Origin: Escherichia coli
GTDB taxonomy: Bacteria; Pseudomonadota; Gammaproteobacteria; Enterobacterales; Enterobacteriaceae
Length of the DNA stretch: 64,000 nucleotides
Strand: one strand, 5' to 3'
Assembly: GCF_009931435.1 (NCBI RefSeq)
Contig: NZ_CP043414.1
The notes beneath the pieces are model-generated. The model was not told the origin of the DNA and ran no database searches. It worked only from the letters and a program-made list of their open reading frames with translations. This document shows positions 1 through 29,695 of this stretch, one piece after another. The first letter of the stretch is position 1. Every line of letters begins with the position of its first letter. The translations under genes and the position numbers were made by a program.

Positions 1-1184
1 CGCCTCCCCCTATACCAGAGGCGGTTCCTGACACAGATTCTCCCTCCCAAAGTCTTAACATTCAAAACACCGCAACACCACCTGAACAATCCCCAGTTAA
101 AAGCAAACGATTCACTACCTTTTGGGTATGGTTTTTTTTCCTGTTGTCGTTAGGTATCTGTGTAGCACTGGTAGCGTTTTCAAGTCTTGATACACGTCTT
201 CCTATGAGCAAATCGCGTATTTTGCTCAATCCACGCGATATTGACATTAATATGGTAAATAAAAGTTGTAACAGCTGGAGTTCCCCGTATCAGCTCTCTT
301 ACGCGATAGGCGTGGGTGATTTGGTGGCGACATCACTTAACACCTTCTCCACCTTTATGGTGCATGACAAAATCAACTACAACATTGATGAACCGAGCAG
401 TTCCGGTAAAACATTATCTATTGCGTTTGTTAATCAGCGCCAATACCGTGCTCAACAATGCTTTATGTCGGTAAAATTGGTAGACAATGCAGATGGTTCA
501 ACCATGCTGGATAAACGTTATGTCATCACTAACGGTAATCAGCTGGCGATTCAAAATGATTTACTGGAGAGTTTATCAAAAGCGTTAAACCAACCGTGGC
601 CACAACGAATGCAGGAGATGCTCCAGCAAATTTTGCCGCATCGTGGTGCGTTATTAACTAATTTTTATCAGGCTCATGATTATTTACTGCATGGCGATGA
701 TAAATCATTGAACCGTGCCAGTGAATTACTAGGTGAGATTGTTCAATCATCCCCCGAATTTACCTACGCGAGAGCAGAAAAAGCATTAGTTGATATCGTG
801 CGCCATTCTCAACATCCTTTAGATGAAAAACAATTAGCAGCACTGAATACAGAAATAGATAACATTGTTACACTGCCGGAATTGAACAACCTGTCCATTA
901 TATATCAAATAAAAGCGGTCAGTGCTCTGGTAAAAGGTAAAACAGATGAGTCTTACCAGGCGATAAATACTGGCATTGATCTTGAAATGTCCTGGCTAAA
1001 TTATGTGTTGCTTGGCAAGGTTTATGAAATGAAGGGGATGAACCGGGAAGCAGCTGATGCATATCTCACCGCCTTTAATTTACGCCCAGGGGCAAACACC
1101 CTTTACTGGATTGAAAATGGTATATTCCAGACTTCTGTTCCTTATGTTGTACCTTATCTCGACAAATTTCTCGCTTCAGAATAA
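1..1184 (+). CDS. cadC: CadC, membrane-integrated ToxR-like activator of cadBA; 5' end lies outside the window (frame open from position 3)
   Basis: Frame is open from window start to the stop at 1184; translation has a TM segment (FWVWFFFLLSLGICVALVAF) and periplasmic sensor domain matching CadC as I recall it; sits directly upstream of cadBA. Confidence 0.9.
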   Translation, partial: PPPIPEAVPDTDSPSQSLNIQNTATPPEQSPVKSKRFTTFWVWFFFLLSLGICVALVAFSSLDTRLPMSKSRILLNPRDIDINMVNKSCNSWSSPYQLSYAIGVGDLVATSLNTFSTFMVHDKINYNIDEPSSSGKTLSIAFVNQRQYRAQQCFMSVKLVDNADGSTMLDKRYVITNGNQLAIQNDLLESLSKALNQPWPQRMQEMLQQILPHRGALLTNFYQAHDYLLHGDDKSLNRASELLGEIVQSSPEFTYARAEKALVDIVRHSQHPLDEKQLAALNTEIDNIVTLPELNNLSIIYQIKAVSALVKGKTDESYQAINTGIDLEMSWLNYVLLGKVYEMKGMNREAADAYLTAFNLRPGANTLYWIENGIFQTSVPYVVPYLDKFLASE

Positions 1185-2961: not shown

Positions 2962-5109
2962 ATGAACGTTATTGCAATATTGAATCACATGGGGGTTTAT
3001 TTTAAAGAAGAACCCATCCGTGAACTTCATCGCGCGCTTGAACGTCTGAACTTCCAGATTGTTTACCCGAATGACCGTGACGACTTATTAAAACTGATCG
3101 AAAACAATGCGCGTCTGTGCGGTGTTATTTTTGACTGGGATAAATATAATCTCGAGCTGTGCGAAGAAATTAGCAAAATGAACGAGAACCTGCCGTTGTA
3201 CGCGTTCGCTAATACGTATTCCACTCTCGATGTCAGCCTGAATGACCTGCGTTTACAGATTAGCTTCTTTGAATATGCGCTGGGTGCTGCTGATGATATT
3301 GCTAACAAGATCAAGCAGACCACTGACGAATATATCAACACTATTCTGCCTCCGCTGACCAAAGCACTGTTTAAATATGTTCGTGAAGGTAAATATACTT
3401 TCTGTACTCCTGGTCACATGGGCGGTACTGCATTCCAGAAAAGCCCGGTAGGTAGCCTGTTCTATGATTTCTTTGGTCCGAACACCATGAAATCTGATAT
3501 TTCCATTTCAGTATCTGAACTGGGTTCTCTGCTGGATCACAGTGGTCCACACAAAGAAGCAGAACAGTATATCGCTCGCGTCTTTAACGCAGACCGCAGC
3601 TACATGGTGACCAACGGTACTTCCACTGCGAACAAAATTGTTGGTATGTACTCTGCTCCGGCAGGCAGCACCATTCTGATTGACCGTAACTGCCACAAAT
3701 CGCTGACCCACCTGATGATGATGAGCGATGTTACGCCAATCTATTTCCGCCCGACCCGTAACGCTTACGGTATTCTTGGTGGTATCCCACAGAGTGAATT
3801 CCAGCACGCTACCATTGCTAAGCGCGTAAAAGAAACACCAAACGCGACCTGGCCGGTACATGCCGTAATTACTAACTCAACCTATGATGGTCTGCTGTAC
3901 AACACCGACTTCATCAAGAAAACACTGGATGTAAAATCCATCCACTTTGACTCCGCGTGGGTGCCTTACACCAACTTCTCACCGATTTACGAAGGTAAAT
4001 GCGGTATGAGCGGTGGCCGTGTAGAAGGGAAAGTGATTTACGAAACCCAGTCCACTCACAAACTGCTGGCGGCATTCTCTCAGGCTTCCATGATCCACGT
4101 TAAAGGTGACGTAAACGAAGAAACCTTTAACGAAGCCTACATGATGCACACCACCACCTCTCCGCACTACGGTATCGTGGCGTCCACTGAAACCGCTGCG
4201 GCGATGATGAAAGGTAATGCTGGTAAGCGTCTGATCAACGGTTCCATTGAACGTGCGATCAAGTTCCGTAAAGAGATCAAACGCCTGAGAACGGAATCTG
4301 ATGGCTGGTTCTTTGATGTATGGCAGCCGGATCATATCGATACCACTGAATGCTGGCCGCTGCGTTCTGACAGCTCCTGGCACGGCTTCAAGAACATCGA
4401 CAATGAGCACATGTATCTTGACCCGATTAAAGTTACCCTGCTGACCCCGGGGATGGAAAAAGACGGCACCATGAGCGACTTTGGTATTCCGGCCAGCATC
4501 GTGGCGAAATACCTCGACGAACATGGCATCGTTGTTGAGAAAACCGGCCCGTATAACCTGCTGTTCCTGTTCAGCATCGGTATTGATAAGACCAAAGCAT
4601 TGAGTCTGCTGCGTGCTCTGACTGACTTCAAACGTGCGTTCGACCTGAACCTGCGTGTGAAAAACATGCTGCCGTCTCTGTATCGTGAAGATCCTGAATT
4701 CTATGAAGATATGCGTATTCAGGAACTGGCTCAGAATATCCACAAACTGATTGTTCACCACAATCTGCCGGATCTGATGTATCGCGCATTTGAAGTTCTG
4801 CCGACAATGGTTATGACTCCGTATGCGGCGTTCCAGAAAGAGCTGCACGGTATGACCGAAGAAGTTTACCTCGACGAAATGGTAGGTCGTATTAACGCCA
4901 ATATGATCCTTCCGTATCCGCCGGGAGTTCCTCTGGTAATGCCGGGTGAAATGATCACCGAAGAAAGCCGTCCGGTGCTGGAGTTCCTGCAGATGCTGTG
5001 TGAAATCGGCGCTCACTATCCGGGCTTTGAAACCGATATTCACGGTGCATACCGTCAGGCTGATGGCCGCTATACCGTTAAGGTATTGAAAGAAGAAAGC
5101 AAAAAATAA
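2962..5109 (+). CDS. cadA: Inducible lysine decarboxylase
   Basis: ORF track starts at 2923, but the ATG at 2962 (MNVIAILNHMGVYF...) gives the 715-aa CadA; PLP fold-III decarboxylase motifs (STHKLL). Confidence 0.95.
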   Translation: MNVIAILNHMGVYFKEEPIRELHRALERLNFQIVYPNDRDDLLKLIENNARLCGVIFDWDKYNLELCEEISKMNENLPLYAFANTYSTLDVSLNDLRLQISFFEYALGAADDIANKIKQTTDEYINTILPPLTKALFKYVREGKYTFCTPGHMGGTAFQKSPVGSLFYDFFGPNTMKSDISISVSELGSLLDHSGPHKEAEQYIARVFNADRSYMVTNGTSTANKIVGMYSAPAGSTILIDRNCHKSLTHLMMMSDVTPIYFRPTRNAYGILGGIPQSEFQHATIAKRVKETPNATWPVHAVITNSTYDGLLYNTDFIKKTLDVKSIHFDSAWVPYTNFSPIYEGKCGMSGGRVEGKVIYETQSTHKLLAAFSQASMIHVKGDVNEETFNEAYMMHTTTSPHYGIVASTETAAAMMKGNAGKRLINGSIERAIKFRKEIKRLRTESDGWFFDVWQPDHIDTTECWPLRSDSSWHGFKNIDNEHMYLDPIKVTLLTPGMEKDGTMSDFGIPASIVAKYLDEHGIVVEKTGPYNLLFLFSIGIDKTKALSLLRALTDFKRAFDLNLRVKNMLPSLYREDPEFYEDMRIQELAQNIHKLIVHHNLPDLMYRAFEVLPTMVMTPYAAFQKELHGMTEEVYLDEMVGRINANMILPYPPGVPLVMPGEMITEESRPVLEFLQMLCEIGAHYPGFETDIHGAYRQADGRYTVKVLKEESKK

Positions 5110-24240: not shown

Positions 24241-24263
24241 TTCCCCTTAATCCAGCAAACATA

Positions 24264-24300
24264 AAAGCCAACCTTAAGAACTTAAGGTTGGCTTAATTTT
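24264..24300 (+). terminator. Rho-independent terminator after adiC
   Basis: Inverted repeat agccaaccttaag / cttaaggttggct followed by aatttt. Confidence 0.6.
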
Positions 24301-24343: not shown

Positions 24344-25987
24344 ATGTTGAAGCGCCTACTAAAAAGACCCTCTTTGAATTTACTCGCCTGGCTATTGTTG
24401 GCCGCTTTTTATATCTCTATCTGCCTGAATATTGCCTTTTTTAAACAGGTGTTGCAGGCGCTGCCGCTGGACTCGCTGCATAACGTACTGGTTTTCTTGT
24501 CGATGCCGGTCGTCGCTTTCAGCGTGATTAATATTGTCCTGACACTAAGCTCTTTCTTATGGCTTAATCGACCGCTGGCCTGCCTGTTTATTCTGGTTGG
24601 CGCGGCTGCACAATATTTCATAATGACTTACGGCATCGTCATCGACCGCTCGATGATTGCCAATATTATTGATACCACCCCAGCAGAAAGTTATGCGCTG
24701 ATGACACCGCAAATGTTATTAACGCTGGGACTCAGCGGCGTACTTGCTGCGCTAATTGCCTGCTGGATTAAAATCAAACCGGCCACCTCGCGCCTGCGCA
24801 GTGTTCTTTTCCGTGGAGCCAATATTCTGGTTTCTGTGCTCCTGATTCTGCTGGTCGCCGCACTGTTTTATAAAGACTACGCCTCGCTGTTTCGCAACAA
24901 CAAAGAGCTGGTGAAGTCCTTAAGCCCCTCTAACAGCATTGTTGCCAGCTGGTCATGGTACTCCCATCAGCGACTGGCAAATCTGCCGCTGGTGCGAATT
25001 GGTGAAGACGCGCACCGCAACCCGTTAATGCAGAACGAGAAACGTAAAAATTTGACCATTTTGATTGTCGGCGAAACCTCGCGGGCGGAGAACTTCTCCC
25101 TCAACGGCTACCCGCGTGAAACTAACCCGCGGCTGGCGAAAGATAACGTGGTCTATTTCCCTAATACCGCATCTTGCGGCACGGCAACGGCAGTTTCAGT
25201 ACCGTGCATGTTCTCGGATATGCCGCGTGAGCATTACAAAGAAGAGTTGGCACAGCACCAGGAAGGCGTGCTGGATATCATTCAGCGAGCGGGCATCAAC
25301 GTGCTGTGGAATGACAACGATGGTGGCTGCAAAGGTGCCTGCGATCGCGTGCCTCACCAGAACGTCACTGCGCTGAACCTGCCTGGTCAGTGTATCAACG
25401 GCGAATGTTATGACGAAGTGCTTTTCCACGGGCTGGAAGAGTACATCAATAACCTGCAAGGTGATGGCGTAATTGTCTTACACACCATCGGCAGTCACGG
25501 CCCGACCTATTACAATCGCTATCCGCCACAGTTCAGGAAATTTACCCCTACCTGCGACACCAACGAGATCCAGACCTGTACCCAAGAGCAACTGGTAAAC
25601 ACTTACGACAATACGCTGGTCTACGTCGACTATATTGTTGATAAAGCAATTAATCTACTGAAAGAACATCAGGATAAATTTACCACCAGCCTGGTTTATC
25701 TTTCTGACCACGGTGAATCGTTAGGTGAAAATGGCATCTATCTGCACGGTTTGCCTTATGCCATCGCCCCGGATAGCCAAAAACAGGTGCCGATGCTGCT
25801 GTGGCTGTCTGAGGATTATCAAAAACGGTATCAGGTTGACCAAAGTTGCCTACAGAAACAGGCGCAAACGCAACACTATTCACAAGACAATTTATTCTCC
25901 ACGCTATTGGGATTAACTGGCGTTGAGACGAAGTATTACCAGGCTGCGGATGATATTCTGCAAACTTGCAGGAGAGTGAGTGAATGA
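24344..25987 (+). CDS. eptA: Lipid A phosphoethanolamine transferase
   Basis: 547 aa from the ATG at 24344 ([19 protein letters not shown]...); sulfatase-family membrane enzyme; the ORF-track start at 24299 is a TTG extension. Confidence 0.9.
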
Positions 25988-26652: not shown

Positions 26653-26661
26653 TTGAATCTG

Positions 26662-27753
26662 ATGCGTTTTCTGCGCCGACCAATATCGCTGCGCCAACGG
26701 CTGATATTGACCATCGGGGCCATTTTGTTGGTGTTTGAGCTGATCAGCGTCTTCTGGCTATGGCATGAAAGTACCGAGCAGATTCAGCTGTTTGAGCAGG
26801 CGCTACGCGACAATCGTAACAACGATCGCCACATCATGCGTGAGATCCGCGAGGCGGTCGCCAGCCTGATTGTCCCTGGCGTCTTTATGGTCAGCCTGAC
26901 GCTATTTATCTGCTATCAGGCGGTACGCCGCATCACCCGCCCGCTGGCGGAGCTGCAAAAAGAGCTGGAAGCGCGCACCGCCGACAACTTAACGCCCATT
27001 GCCATTCACAGCGCCACCCTCGAAATCGAAGCGGTGGTTTCAGCGTTAAACGATCTGGTCAGTCGCCTGACCAACACGCTGGATAACGAAAGGTTGTTTA
27101 CCGCTGACGTCGCGCACGAACTGCGAACGCCACTGGCGGGGGTGCGTTTGCATCTGGAACTGCTGGCGAAAACGCATCACATTGATGTAGCACCGTTAGT
27201 GGCACGACTTGATCAGATGATGGAGAGTGTCTCCCAGCTACTGCAACTGGCGCGTGCCGGACAGTCATTTTCTTCCGGTAATTATCAACATGTAAAACTG
27301 CTGGAAGATGTCATTCTCCCCTCGTATGACGAACTCAGTACCATGCTCGACCAGCGCCAGCAAACCCTGCTATTACCAGAGAGCGCCGCCGACATCATCG
27401 TTCAGGGTGATGCAACCCTGCTGCGGATGTTATTGCGAAACCTGGTAGAAAATGCCCATCGTTACAGCCCGCAAGGCAGCAACATTATGATTAAGCTGCA
27501 AGAAGATGGCGGAGCGGTCATGGCCGTTGAAGATGAAGGACCGGGTATTGATGAGAGTAAATGCGGGGAGTTGAGTAAAGCGTTTGTACGTATGGACAGC
27601 CGTTATGGCGGGATTGGTCTGGGGTTAAGTATTGTCAGCCGCATTACACAGTTGCATCACGGGCAGTTTTTCCTGCAAAACCGGCAAGAGACTTCTGGCA
27701 CACGGGCCTGGATACGGCTGAAAAAAGATCAGTACGTGGCAAACCAGATATAA
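26662..27753 (+). CDS. basS: Sensor histidine kinase BasS/PmrB
   Basis: 363 aa from the ATG at 26662 (MRFLRRPISLRQRLILTIGAILLV...); the ORF track begins 9 nt upstream at a TTG. Confidence 0.9.
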   Translation: MRFLRRPISLRQRLILTIGAILLVFELISVFWLWHESTEQIQLFEQALRDNRNNDRHIMREIREAVASLIVPGVFMVSLTLFICYQAVRRITRPLAELQKELEARTADNLTPIAIHSATLEIEAVVSALNDLVSRLTNTLDNERLFTADVAHELRTPLAGVRLHLELLAKTHHIDVAPLVARLDQMMESVSQLLQLARAGQSFSSGNYQHVKLLEDVILPSYDELSTMLDQRQQTLLLPESAADIIVQGDATLLRMLLRNLVENAHRYSPQGSNIMIKLQEDGGAVMAVEDEGPGIDESKCGELSKAFVRMDSRYGGIGLGLSIVSRITQLHHGQFFLQNRQETSGTRAWIRLKKDQYVANQI

Positions 27754-27818
27754 AGAAAGCTGCTGACCACCAGCACGCTGAACACGGTAGTTAAACTTTC
27801 ATAAACACGGTTTTTCAT
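27729..27818 (-). CDS. pmrR: PmrR small membrane protein (29 aa), antisense to and overlapping the 3' end of basS
   Basis: Minus-strand translation MKNRVYESLTTVFSVLVVSSFLYIWFATY* matches PmrR as I recall it; below the ORF-track cutoff. Confidence 0.75.
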   Translation of the reverse strand: MKNRVYESLTTVFSVLVVSSFLYIWFATY

Positions 27819-27929
27819 TGCACTCTCCTCCGTTAACCTGGAGGAGAGTATGCGCGTCAGAGATTAAGTGAACCTTAAGAGTTCAATTGGCCTGATAAGA
27901 CAGCGTCACATCAGGCCATCCGTTTCAGC

Positions 27930-29432
27930 TTATTCATCAATTCGCGGATGTTGCTGCACCAGGCGGGTACGTTTCGCCTGCAAATCGGCAATCTCGTGGT
28001 CAATATCATCGATTTTCTGCTCGATATTATCGTAATGCTCGACGAGAATTTCCTTCGCTTCCTGTATATCTGACGCCGCCGGTGTCGCACCTTTCAACGG
28101 ACGATTCGCCGTCTCTTTCATGGTTACGCCGGTGATTAAACCAACCACCGCCACTACCATCAGGTAATAGGCAGGCATCATCAGATTCTGCGAGCTTTCG
28201 ACCAGCCAGGCCGCCAACGTTGGCGTCAGACCGGCAACCAGCACCGAAATATTAAATGCCGCCGCCAGCGCGCTGTAACGGATATGCGTCGGGAACATCG
28301 CTGGCAAGGTAGAAGCCATAACGCCCGTGAAGCAGTTAAGGATCACCGCCAGCATCAGTAACCCGGCAAAAATCAGGCCGATGACGTTACTGTTAATCAG
28401 AATAAACGCCGGGATCGCCAACACAAACAGTGCAACACTACCAAGTAGCACAAACGGACGACGGCCAAAACGGTCACTCAGCAAGCCCATCACCGGCTGG
28501 ACAAACAGCATACCGATCATAATGGCGATAATAATCAGCACCCCGTGGTCTTCGGAGTAATGCAGGTTATGCGACAAATAACTCGGCATATAGGTCAGCA
28601 ACATGTAGTAAGTCACGTTGGTGGCAATTACCAGACCAATACATGTCAACAGGCTGCGCCAGTATTTAGTGGCAATCTCTTTAAACGAGACTTTCGGACC
28701 ATCCTGCAAACCTTCGCGGTCGCCCTGTTCCAGTTTATCAACATGCTGCTGGAACGCCGGAGTTTCTTCCAGCGCATGGCGCAGGTAAAGCCCGATAATC
28801 CCTAACGGCAGAGCAATAAAGAACGGAATACGCCAGCCCCAGTCGAGGAAGTTCGCTTCGCCGACAATGGTCGAAATTAACACCACCACGCCCGCACCCA
28901 GCACAAACCCGGCAATAGAACCGAAGTCCAGCCAGCTGCCCATAAAGCCACGTTTACGGTCAGGGGAGTATTCCGCAACAAATATCGACGCCCCGGTATA
29001 TTCACCGCCGACCGAGAAACCTTGTGCCATCTTACAGATCAACAGCAGAATCGGTGCCCAAATACCAATCGTGTCGTAGGACGGTATTAAACCAATACAG
29101 AACGTACTGATCGACATAATCACAATAGTGATAGCGAGGATCTTCTGGCGACCATATTTATCGCCCAACATACCAAAGAAGAGTCCGCCAAGCGGTCGAA
29201 TCAGAAAGGGAACGGAGAAAGTGGCAAGTGCAGCAACCATCTGCACGCTGGGGTCAGCCCCCGGGAAAAAAACTTTACCTAATGCGTAAGCAACAAAACC
29301 ATAAACACCAAAATCGAACCATTCCATTGCATTACCCAGTGATGCTGCGGTAATGGCTTTACGCAGTTTACCGTCATCAATAATAGTGACATCACGAAGG
29401 GTAATCGGTTTTACTTTTTTCCTTTTCAGCAT
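27930..29432 (-). CDS. proP: Proline/glycine betaine:H+ symporter (osmosensory MFS transporter)
   Basis: 500 aa from the ATG at 29432 (MLKRKKVKPITLRDVTIIDDGKLRKAI...); C-terminal coiled-coil tail; the ORF-track start at 29465 is an extension. Confidence 0.95.
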   Translation of the reverse strand: MLKRKKVKPITLRDVTIIDDGKLRKAITAASLGNAMEWFDFGVYGFVAYALGKVFFPGADPSVQMVAALATFSVPFLIRPLGGLFFGMLGDKYGRQKILAITIVIMSISTFCIGLIPSYDTIGIWAPILLLICKMAQGFSVGGEYTGASIFVAEYSPDRKRGFMGSWLDFGSIAGFVLGAGVVVLISTIVGEANFLDWGWRIPFFIALPLGIIGLYLRHALEETPAFQQHVDKLEQGDREGLQDGPKVSFKEIATKYWRSLLTCIGLVIATNVTYYMLLTYMPSYLSHNLHYSEDHGVLIIIAIMIGMLFVQPVMGLLSDRFGRRPFVLLGSVALFVLAIPAFILINSNVIGLIFAGLLMLAVILNCFTGVMASTLPAMFPTHIRYSALAAAFNISVLVAGLTPTLAAWLVESSQNLMMPAYYLMVVAVVGLITGVTMKETANRPLKGATPAASDIQEAKEILVEHYDNIEQKIDDIDHEIADLQAKRTRLVQQHPRIDE

Positions 29433-29695
29433 AGCTTTCCTCGCAGAGTTGGCCCATTTCCGCAAACGCCAGAAAAATCAGCGCGACGGCCGCAAAAGGG
29501 GAGCGGGAATTGCAGGATGCAATCTCTGTAACAAGCGTAGCGGGTTTGCTTACACCCTCCGGTTAAGGAATGTACAATCAAACCAGTTGACGCCTGAATT
29601 GGGCAGTTAATGAGCTTTTTACCCTACCAGTGTTTAAATTTGTGATCAACTTCACACATGGTTTTCGTTTAGGAGTCATTGATGTAACTGATTAT

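Follow-up and report, generated by a model that had tools for sequence, protein, structure and literature searches.

The 29-codon reading frame antisense to the 3' end of basS in Escherichia coli is pmrR, and its conserved leader hairpin may overlap its own PmrA-dependent promoter

In a 64,000-nt stretch of Escherichia coli DNA (contig NZ_CP043414.1; hereafter the window), the gap between the convergent genes basS and proP raises the question of whether a very short reading frame on the minus strand encodes a functional product and, if so, how its synthesis could be set when transcription of proP runs strongly into it. This frame had originally been predicted to be pmrR, a 29-codon gene antisense to the last ~25 nt of basS that encodes a PmrA-activated small membrane peptide involved in the control of lipid A modification. 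The position was as predicted. An ATG frame at 27729-27818 (-), present in the mechanical list of open reading frames (ORFs), is translated as MKNRVYESLTTVFSVLVVSSFLYIWFATY over 29 codons and ends in TGA. The basS (pmrB) gene occupies 26653-27753 (+), and its last 25 nt including the stop codon (27729-27753, +) are antisense to codons 22-29 and the stop codon of pmrR, a tail-to-tail overlap of the coding sequences of exactly 25 nt that is likewise annotated in K-12. The proP gene (27930-29465, -) ends 111 nt upstream of the pmrR ATG, and pmrR thus sits between basS and proP, with the same orientation as proP and convergent to basS.

A frame of this length is not significant alone, given the 82 ORFs of 20 aa or more that overlap the surrounding 5.5 kb. 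Such abundance is what would favour a functionless chance open frame, a reading that we regard as already refuted, since pmrR is set above chance by an NCBIfam hit, a perfect PmrA box, a GGAGG Shine-Dalgarno sequence (SD), conservation across genera, the coding pattern of its codon positions and published experiments. The NCBIfam equivalog NF033224 ('PmrR'; curated cutoff, 30 bits) was hit with 74.2 bits (E=5.2e-21), with residues 1-29 on profile positions 1-29, and Pfam holds no PmrR family. The peptide is identical to PmrR of MG1655 (b4703; UniProt PMRR_ECOLI). When the 401 nt around the ORF were compared with MG1655, four substitutions and no indels were found, all of them downstream of the ORF inside basS and none within the ORF, its leader or the PmrA box. 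With the same 401 nt as query, matches of 95-100% identity were obtained in 5,408 of 5,426 complete E. coli genomes; the RefSeq feature under the match is named 'pmrR: LpxT activity modulator PmrR'. In K-12 records, pmrR (b4703) is a 90-nt CDS overlapping pmrB. The identity of the gene is already known from RefSeq, EcoCyc (b4703), UniProt, NCBIfam, Rfam and experiments in E. coli; the original assignment is borne out by these records, and nothing was found that contradicts it.

The region upstream of the ORF was searched for the PmrA (BasR) box with the pattern YTTAAK-N5-YTTAAK, revealing a perfect match, CTTAAGGTTCACTTAAT, at 27863-27879 (-), 44 nt upstream of the ATG. Two perfect boxes are present in the 64-kb window against 0.12 expected by chance, and the second one (24281-24297, +) stands directly before eptA. 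The GGAGG SD lies at 27827-27831 (-), 8 nt before the ATG. Within the peptide, residues 9-27 form one hydrophobic helix with a Kyte-Doolittle mean of 1.94, in agreement with the single transmembrane helix that had been expected. Lysine 2 and arginine 4 flank this helix on its N-terminal side and only T-Y follows it, which fits a single-pass peptide with its N-terminus in the cytoplasm.

To follow the gene in other Enterobacteriaceae, 80 PmrB loci were sampled, with one genome per species, and the region downstream of each pmrB was searched with the PmrA box (at most one mismatch) as anchor; Salmonella is absent from these loci, as the scan patterns were E. coli-specific, and Salmonella-type sequence was represented solely through the Rfam consensus. 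In 54 loci, and in two more detected by a covariance model, a 28-33-codon ORF begins with ATG 41-46 nt past the box and ends at or just inside the 3' end of pmrB, and an SD of the GAGG or GGAG type was found at the same position in all of the 54. The arrangement of box, SD and 28-33-codon ORF recurs in 57 of 81 PmrB loci, in about 15 enterobacterial genera, among them Escherichia, Citrobacter (C. amalonaticus), Klebsiella, Raoultella, Kosakonia, Kluyvera, Phytobacter, Pseudocitrobacter, Trabulsiella, Yokenella and Pluralibacter, as well as several 'Enterobacter' species. No such ORF was found downstream of pmrB in Pectobacterium, Rahnella, Rouxiella, Ewingella, Chimaeribacter or Edaphovirga. 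Upstream of pmrR and in the same direction lies proP in Escherichia and C. amalonaticus; elsewhere this place is taken by uvrB. Thus, when examined for poor conservation and for a lack of promoter or ribosome-binding signals, the predicted gene showed neither.

The peptides encoded at these loci are strongly diverged, with a length of 30 aa in 43 of 54 and with the hydrophobic core retained. Among 51 distinct peptides, no variation was seen at M1, F21 and W25 (numbered as in E. coli), and the C-terminus is T or S followed by Y or F. Mean pairwise identity at codon positions 1, 2 and 3 was 0.49, 0.73 and 0.37, respectively (codons 2-20 of 42 distinct 30-codon genes), and this pattern together with the kept ORF length is, on comparative grounds, a signature of protein-level selection. 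The cutoff of NF033224 was passed only by the Escherichia/Citrobacter type and by one MAG; the Klebsiella, Raoultella, Trabulsiella and Pseudocitrobacter types gave 17-19 bits or no score. The peptides below the cutoff, of which MQKINFREYLAVATALVIIVAFFHQWVLTF is a Klebsiella-type example, carry 'hypothetical' or 'uncharacterised' labels in public records.

The function of PmrR has been studied genetically in E. coli, in which pmrR was described as overlapping pmrB and as having a PmrA-box promoter (PMC8129183). Deletion of the box only, in a PmrA-constitutive strain, led to polymyxin sensitivity and deoxycholate resistance, which is the phenotype of a pmrR null mutant; the polymyxin phenotype was reversed by deletion of lpxT and complemented by ectopic pmrR, and the authors concluded that LpxT is inhibited by PmrR (PMC8129183). 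For Salmonella, PmrR is reported to bind and inhibit LpxT by Kato et al. 2012, as that work is cited in PMC8129183, PMC11429745 and PMC8004244. The E. coli peptide was seen by Ribo-RET under low Mg2+, a PmrR-6xHis version was found in the membrane fraction, and the growth defect of a pmrR deletion could be complemented with the wild-type gene, whereas an ATG-to-TAA allele failed to do so (PMC11429745). As the low-Mg growth defects resulting from pmrR deletion and from its overexpression were both lpxT-independent, LpxT may not be the sole target; a pmrR-proximal reporter showed no stress-induced activity in the same work (PMC11429745). In another study, the 25-bp overlap was noted together with the suggestion that E. 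coli PmrR may differ in behaviour from the Salmonella model, and the effects of the pmrB 3' region were at odds with the Salmonella feedback model (PMC8004244).

The locus was also matched by an Rfam family of declared non-coding type, RF02052 (STnc630), over its full length (model positions 1-166 of 166) at 27722-27887 (-), with 182 bits against a gathering threshold of 55 bits. Such a match is what would be expected if the transcript were a non-coding or antisense RNA that pairs with basS mRNA across the overlap as an 'excludon', the small ORF being incidental. The published 3' end of the 'primary' pmrR transcript is compatible with pairing of this kind: it lies at 27629 (-; MG1655 4332305), inside basS, 100 nt past the pmrR stop codon (PMC10687069) and ~5 nt after a long-range stem, and would give ~125 nt of complementarity to basS. 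Furthermore, a list of convergent excludons drawn up from RNA-seq coverage includes the pair pmrR-basS (PMC12288877), and the region downstream of the pmrB 3' end affects PmrB expression in BL21 (PMC8004244). However, the match spans the PmrA box, the leader hairpin, the whole ORF and 7 nt past it, so that it is not delimited as a mapped sRNA would be, and the declared type does not apply to a region that holds a promoter box and a translated, selection-constrained ORF. A non-coding RNA also accords poorly with codon positions that behave as coding and with an ORF length kept while the sequence diverges, as well as with the published Ribo-RET signal, membrane-fraction protein and loss of complementation by the ATG-to-TAA allele (PMC11429745). 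In addition, the antisense overlap is not itself conserved, the pmrR and pmrB coding sequences overlapping by anything from -8 to +57 nt depending on the genus. A role as antisense RNA with an incidental ORF is thus very unlikely. The Rfam 'sRNA' STnc630 is the pmrR locus, with no separate non-coding RNA, and the pmrR transcript may have an extra antisense role beside the peptide.

Overall, the locus is almost certainly best explained as pmrR, the gene of a PmrA-induced inner-membrane peptide that inhibits LpxT, in keeping with the PmrA-activated role in lipid A control that had been predicted; the box and the hydrophobic helix are present, and both PmrA dependence and LpxT inhibition are published. 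In the proposed circuit, Fe3+, mild acid, or PhoPQ by way of PmrD would lead to phosphorylation of PmrA/BasR, as published. Phosphorylated PmrA would then bind the box at 27863-27879 in place of a -35 element, and RNA polymerase would start ~20-24 nt downstream, producing a short leader with a strong SD from which the 29-residue single-pass peptide, with its basic N-terminus in the cytoplasm, would be translated. According to the published steps, PmrR would bind and inhibit LpxT, the enzyme that puts a second phosphate on position 1 of lipid A, and the position left free would receive phosphoethanolamine from EptA. The less negative surface charge would increase polymyxin resistance, decrease deoxycholate resistance and feed back on PmrB signalling, also as published. 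The pmrR transcript itself would continue ~100 nt antisense into basS. To this circuit we add a part for the leader hairpin, which we infer from its position and conservation.

This hairpin, with a perfect stem of 10 bp, is located at 27822-27849 (-), between the PmrA box and the ATG. Its 5' arm is ACTCTCCTCC (27849-27840, -), its loop AGGTTAAC (27839-27832, -) and its 3' arm GGAGGAGAGT (27831-27822, -), the last of which contains the SD. The fold had a z-score of -4.39 versus shuffles. The structure itself is not new, as it is present in the consensus structure of Rfam STnc630. An equivalent hairpin was found in every locus with the module, with differing bases (for instance CTATCTTCA/TGAGGATAG in K. 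pneumoniae and ACTGCCC/GGGCAGT in Kosakonia), and its 5' arm begins 10-14 nt after the PmrA box across loci. The spacer between proP and pmrR holds another palindrome, GGCCTGATGTGACGCTGTCTTATCAGGCC, at 27889-27917 (-), which is wholly paired in the computed fold and which we take to be REP-like.

Conservation of the pairing was followed in two alignments. In the first (A1), a MAFFT alignment of 41 distinct leaders that was not fitted to any structure, the 12-pair stem was 75.9% paired versus 35-52% in slid registers, with a covariation score of 0.26 versus 0.06-0.14, and one stem pair occurred as AU in 12 leaders, CG in 12, GC in 6 and GU in 5. The second alignment (A2) was fitted to a model and so leans toward the structure by construction; in it, the core helix was 83.6% paired, with a covariation score of 0.262 against at most 0.10, and 8 of the 12 pairs were changed on both sides, a number equalled by 5 of 500 shuffles. 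Over both alignments together, 35-60% of cells were paired in the slid registers. In K. pneumoniae, a GC-rich terminator belonging to the upstream gene uvrB directly adjoins the box, and the SD hairpin is still kept. The hairpin is therefore to be counted as part of the pmrR/pmrB module, and its conservation may not be owed solely to insulation from read-through.

As 87% of the stem cells are Watson-Crick pairs, the hairpin would be workable on either strand, and it could act in the opposite RNA as a 3'-end stabiliser or terminator of eptA-basRS (pmrCAB), with masking of the SD as a by-product. That pmrB is the neighbour constant in all genera, while the upstream gene alternates between proP and uvrB, would agree with such a role, as would the 19 of 50 leaders in which the antisense fold was the more stable one. 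The two strands can be told apart by the imperfect pairs, since G.U is tolerated only in the pmrR-sense RNA and A.C only in the pmrB-sense RNA. Counts were made in a fixed register, replacing those from free MFE folds of each strand (50 vs 42), which were confounded. Over the whole stem, A.C cells were not rare (30 versus 44 G.U cells), but most of them fall at a single outer pair, in which the adenine on the 5' side is fixed by the -10-like element, and in the six central pairs 25 G.U cells were found against 4 A.C cells. Moreover, no U-tract follows the stem on the pmrB-sense strand, and two datasets, in which basS was poorly expressed, contain no pmrB-sense 3' end near the hairpin, whereas pmrR-sense 3' ends were seen in both. 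A primary function in the eptA-basRS transcript is consequently unlikely, and the pattern of imperfect pairs favours use of the hairpin by the pmrR-sense strand.

The position of the hairpin relative to the promoter was then considered. A generic sigma-70 scan called no -35/-10 promoter for pmrR, an outcome to be expected where, as in PmrA-activated promoters, the pmra-box takes the place of the -35 element (PMC10570014). At the mapped pbgP promoter, a PhoB site at -41 to -25 lies four bp upstream of the pmra-box (PMC10570014), which puts that box at about -37 to -21. In the pmrR leader, the hexamer CATACT (27847-27852, -), a putative -10 element whose 3' half is the start of the hairpin 5' arm, is found 10 nt after the PmrA box, which fits the published pmra-box geometry. 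The consensus of this hexamer in the family is N-A-N-A-C-T, its A, A, C and T columns (30, 32, 33 and 34 of A1) being invariant or nearly so, and the A and T of the A-x-A-C-T motif correspond to positions -11 and -7 in a -10 hexamer. From the pbgP geometry and this hexamer, a PmrA-dependent transcription start site (TSS) was predicted at 27839-27842 (-; MG1655 4332092-4332095), which falls on the last bases of the hairpin 5' arm or the first base of the loop. The supplements of Cappable-seq and SMRT-Cappable-seq contain no entry near the pmrR start.

A TSS upstream of the 5' arm would instead include the hairpin in the PmrA-dependent mRNA, where it would exert translational control or serve as a stabilising 5' stem-loop that is opened for synthesis. 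This arrangement is compatible with the STnc630 model, which has its start 8 nt before the box and treats the hairpin as an RNA structure, and the filter rule applied to the Term-seq data implies, for the 3' end retained at 4332116, some TSS 21-200 nt upstream of it (Adams et al., PMC7815308). A masked SD would also account for PmrR levels that seem to be tightly limited (PMC11429745). Nevertheless, the gap between box and 5' arm is only 10-14 nt, and at pbgP the pmra-box replaces the -35 element and ends near -21; were the TSS placed ahead of the arm, a -10 element could not be accommodated, and the invariant A..ACT motif stands where that element must be. Inclusion of the hairpin in the PmrA-dependent mRNA is for these reasons improbable.

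Read from the predicted promoter, the conserved hairpin would base-pair that promoter's -10/discriminator with the SD. The computed mean unpaired probability of GGAGGAGAGU was 0.27 in RNA from the predicted TSS versus 0.002-0.003 in RNA starting upstream. We tentatively propose, as a reading that has a fair claim but falls somewhat short of being probable, an insulator formed by a promoter inside a hairpin, in which the 5' arm would be the -10/discriminator, the loop the start site and the 3' arm the SD. RNA coming from the upstream gene, which is proP here and uvrB in other genera, would fold the hairpin and have its SD masked, so that the read-through RNA would acquire a stable 3' end just past the stem and pmrR would be untranslatable from it. 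RNA initiated by PmrA would start at the end of the 5' arm, without the anti-SD, and would be translated. With a predicted TSS, this model rests on promoter geometry.

Published 3' ends of proP-side transcripts were located at 27816-27818 (-; MG1655 4332116, 4332117 and 4332118), 4-6 nt after the stem. The first of them was reported as a pmrR-sense 3' end by Term-seq (PMC7815308), and those at 4332117 and 4332118 by TRS on two datasets, whose authors also stated that SEnd-seq shows the upstream gene terminating within the pmrR CDS (PMC10687069). The leader hairpin does not correspond to an intrinsic terminator, as its stem is followed by GCAAUGAAAAAC with no U-tract and the terminator scan was silent at it; A-rich flanks of the hairpin are also present in other genera. 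The 3' ends at 4332116-8 may be the product of termination, non-canonical or Rho-dependent, with later trimming to the stem, or may be trimmed ends at which the hairpin stopped exonucleases. A terminator-like site inside the ORF (27775-27761) was considered as the end of proP and rejected, as no published 3' end lies there and all are at 4332116-8.

PmrR is part of a circuit that sets the charge of lipid A and, through it, resistance to polymyxin/colistin and to bile salts. Confirmation of pmrR in the window adds nothing new, as the gene has been studied genetically and virtually all E. coli genomes carry its annotation. What is added is, on the one hand, the putative arrangement that would tie together the 3' end of proP, the masking of the SD and the PmrA-dependent start. 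If true, PmrR synthesis would be strictly set by the position at which transcription starts and not merely by the amount of RNA over the gene, and this would be a simple reason for pmrR being silent despite strong transcription of proP into it. On the other hand, Klebsiella and other genera were found to have, linked to a PmrA box, positional orthologues that are still without a name and are not recognised by the NCBIfam model; the module with its much-diverged 'hypothetical' peptides is also present in Raoultella, Kosakonia, Kluyvera and further genera. The unnamed Klebsiella orthologues matter for work on colistin resistance in K. pneumoniae.

When compared with known systems, the peptide corresponds in every respect to PmrR of Salmonella enterica and E. 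coli, with a sequence identical to that of K-12, the same position antisense to pmrB, the PmrA box, a single transmembrane helix and a length of 29 aa; there is no difference from pmrR of E. coli K-12, and it is the same gene in another strain. The consensus structure of STnc630 (RF02052) has two elements, the SD hairpin and a hairpin internal to the ORF, and although Rfam assigns the family the type of an sRNA gene, the model takes in the PmrA box, which is a promoter element, as well as a translated ORF. PmrR resembles MgrB, MgtS and the connector PmrD of the PhoPQ/PmrAB network in its size below 50 aa, its induction by a two-component system, the modulation of a membrane enzyme or sensor and the feedback; unlike in those cases, with which it has no sequence relationship, its published target LpxT is neither a kinase nor a transporter. 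As in convergent excludons, among which it is listed (PMC12288877), the pmrR transcript runs antisense into basS, but the CDS overlap is not conserved between genera and a reciprocal effect on expression is only putative here. Among the papers accessible to search, no description was found of a regulated transcript that starts inside such a hairpin. The leader hairpin is similar to SD-sequestering leader hairpins and to protective 3'-terminal stem-loops, as its 3' arm is the SD and 3' ends are found a few nt past the stem; unlike in SD-sequestering hairpins, its 5' arm would coincide with the -10/discriminator of its own activator-dependent promoter.

PmrA-box-driven syntenic ORFs for peptides of 30 aa (for instance MQKINFREYLAVATALVIIVAFFHQWVLTF) were present in Klebsiella, Raoultella, Kosakonia, Kluyvera, Phytobacter, Trabulsiella and Pseudocitrobacter. 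In K. pneumoniae, the ORF occupies 3550–3642 (minus strand) of the PmrB locus sampled for this species (L022), and like ORFs were located on the same strand at about 3530–3680 in L008, L011, L017, L020, L023, L044, L060 and others. These peptides scored 0–19 bits with NF033224, the NCBIfam equivalog model for PmrR, under its cutoff of 30 bits, and public records carry them as 'hypothetical/uncharacterised'. They seem to be PmrR orthologues that have not been named.

The pmrCAB-pmrR module adjoins proP in Escherichia and Citrobacter amalonaticus (L002–L007, L073), whereas in other Enterobacteriaceae (L008–L062) its neighbour is uvrB; therefore, either the module was relocated or its surroundings were rearranged. 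The unit formed by the box, the leader hairpin and the ORF was kept in both settings. In the K. pneumoniae locus (L022, 3686–3719, minus strand), the uvrB terminator hairpin, GGCCGC-GTT-GCGGCC, is followed by a T-rich run that merges into the PmrA box of pmrR (3702–3686); the tail of the terminator thus shares sequence with the activator site. In C. amalonaticus AUH_CA_2023_1 (L073, 2501–3575, plus strand), a stop was found at about 3007 in the pmrB frame read from the start of the match, despite which the similarity to pmrB runs on to 3575. A frameshift in pmrB, a pseudogene or an error of assembly could account for this interruption. At this locus, pmrR retains an intact box, hairpin and ORF (R1 match, 62 bits).

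Within the window, the only perfect PmrA box besides that of pmrR was detected in the eptA promoter (24281–24297, plus strand), 46 nt upstream of the ATG at 24344, compared to 44 nt for pmrR, with additional CTTAAG/CTTAAT half-sites at 24273–24278 and 24245–24250 on the same strand. The covariance model of box plus hairpin also gave weak matches (24–28 bits) at the pmrC/eptA promoters of L002, L004, L022, L047 and L073 (around 100–200, plus strand), because the PmrA box is common to both promoters and the distance from box to ATG is similar.

Regarding the RNA ends, the 3′ end published as 'primary' for pmrR maps to 27629 on the minus strand (MG1655 4332305), about 5 nt past a long-range stem and 100 nt beyond the stop codon; therefore, the mRNA covers some 125 nt at the 3′ end of basS in antisense. 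The two genes have been listed as a convergent excludon. The spacer that separates the stop codon of proP from the PmrA box contains the palindrome GGCCTGATGTGACGCTGTCTTATCAGGCC (27889–27917, minus strand), which we take to be REP-like; it was fully paired in folds of the read-through RNA, and no published RNA 3′ end was found at it. A small terminator-like hairpin with a T-rich tail lies within pmrR codons 15–22 (27761–27775, minus strand), where the datasets searched held no measured RNA 3′ end.

The latter hairpin is also part of the consensus structure of Rfam RF02052 'STnc630' (27722–27887, minus strand). Positions 9–25 of this model correspond to the PmrA box, a DNA promoter element, and the full translated ORF also falls inside it. 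Although Rfam gives its type as sRNA gene, what RF02052 describes is in fact the pmrR locus.
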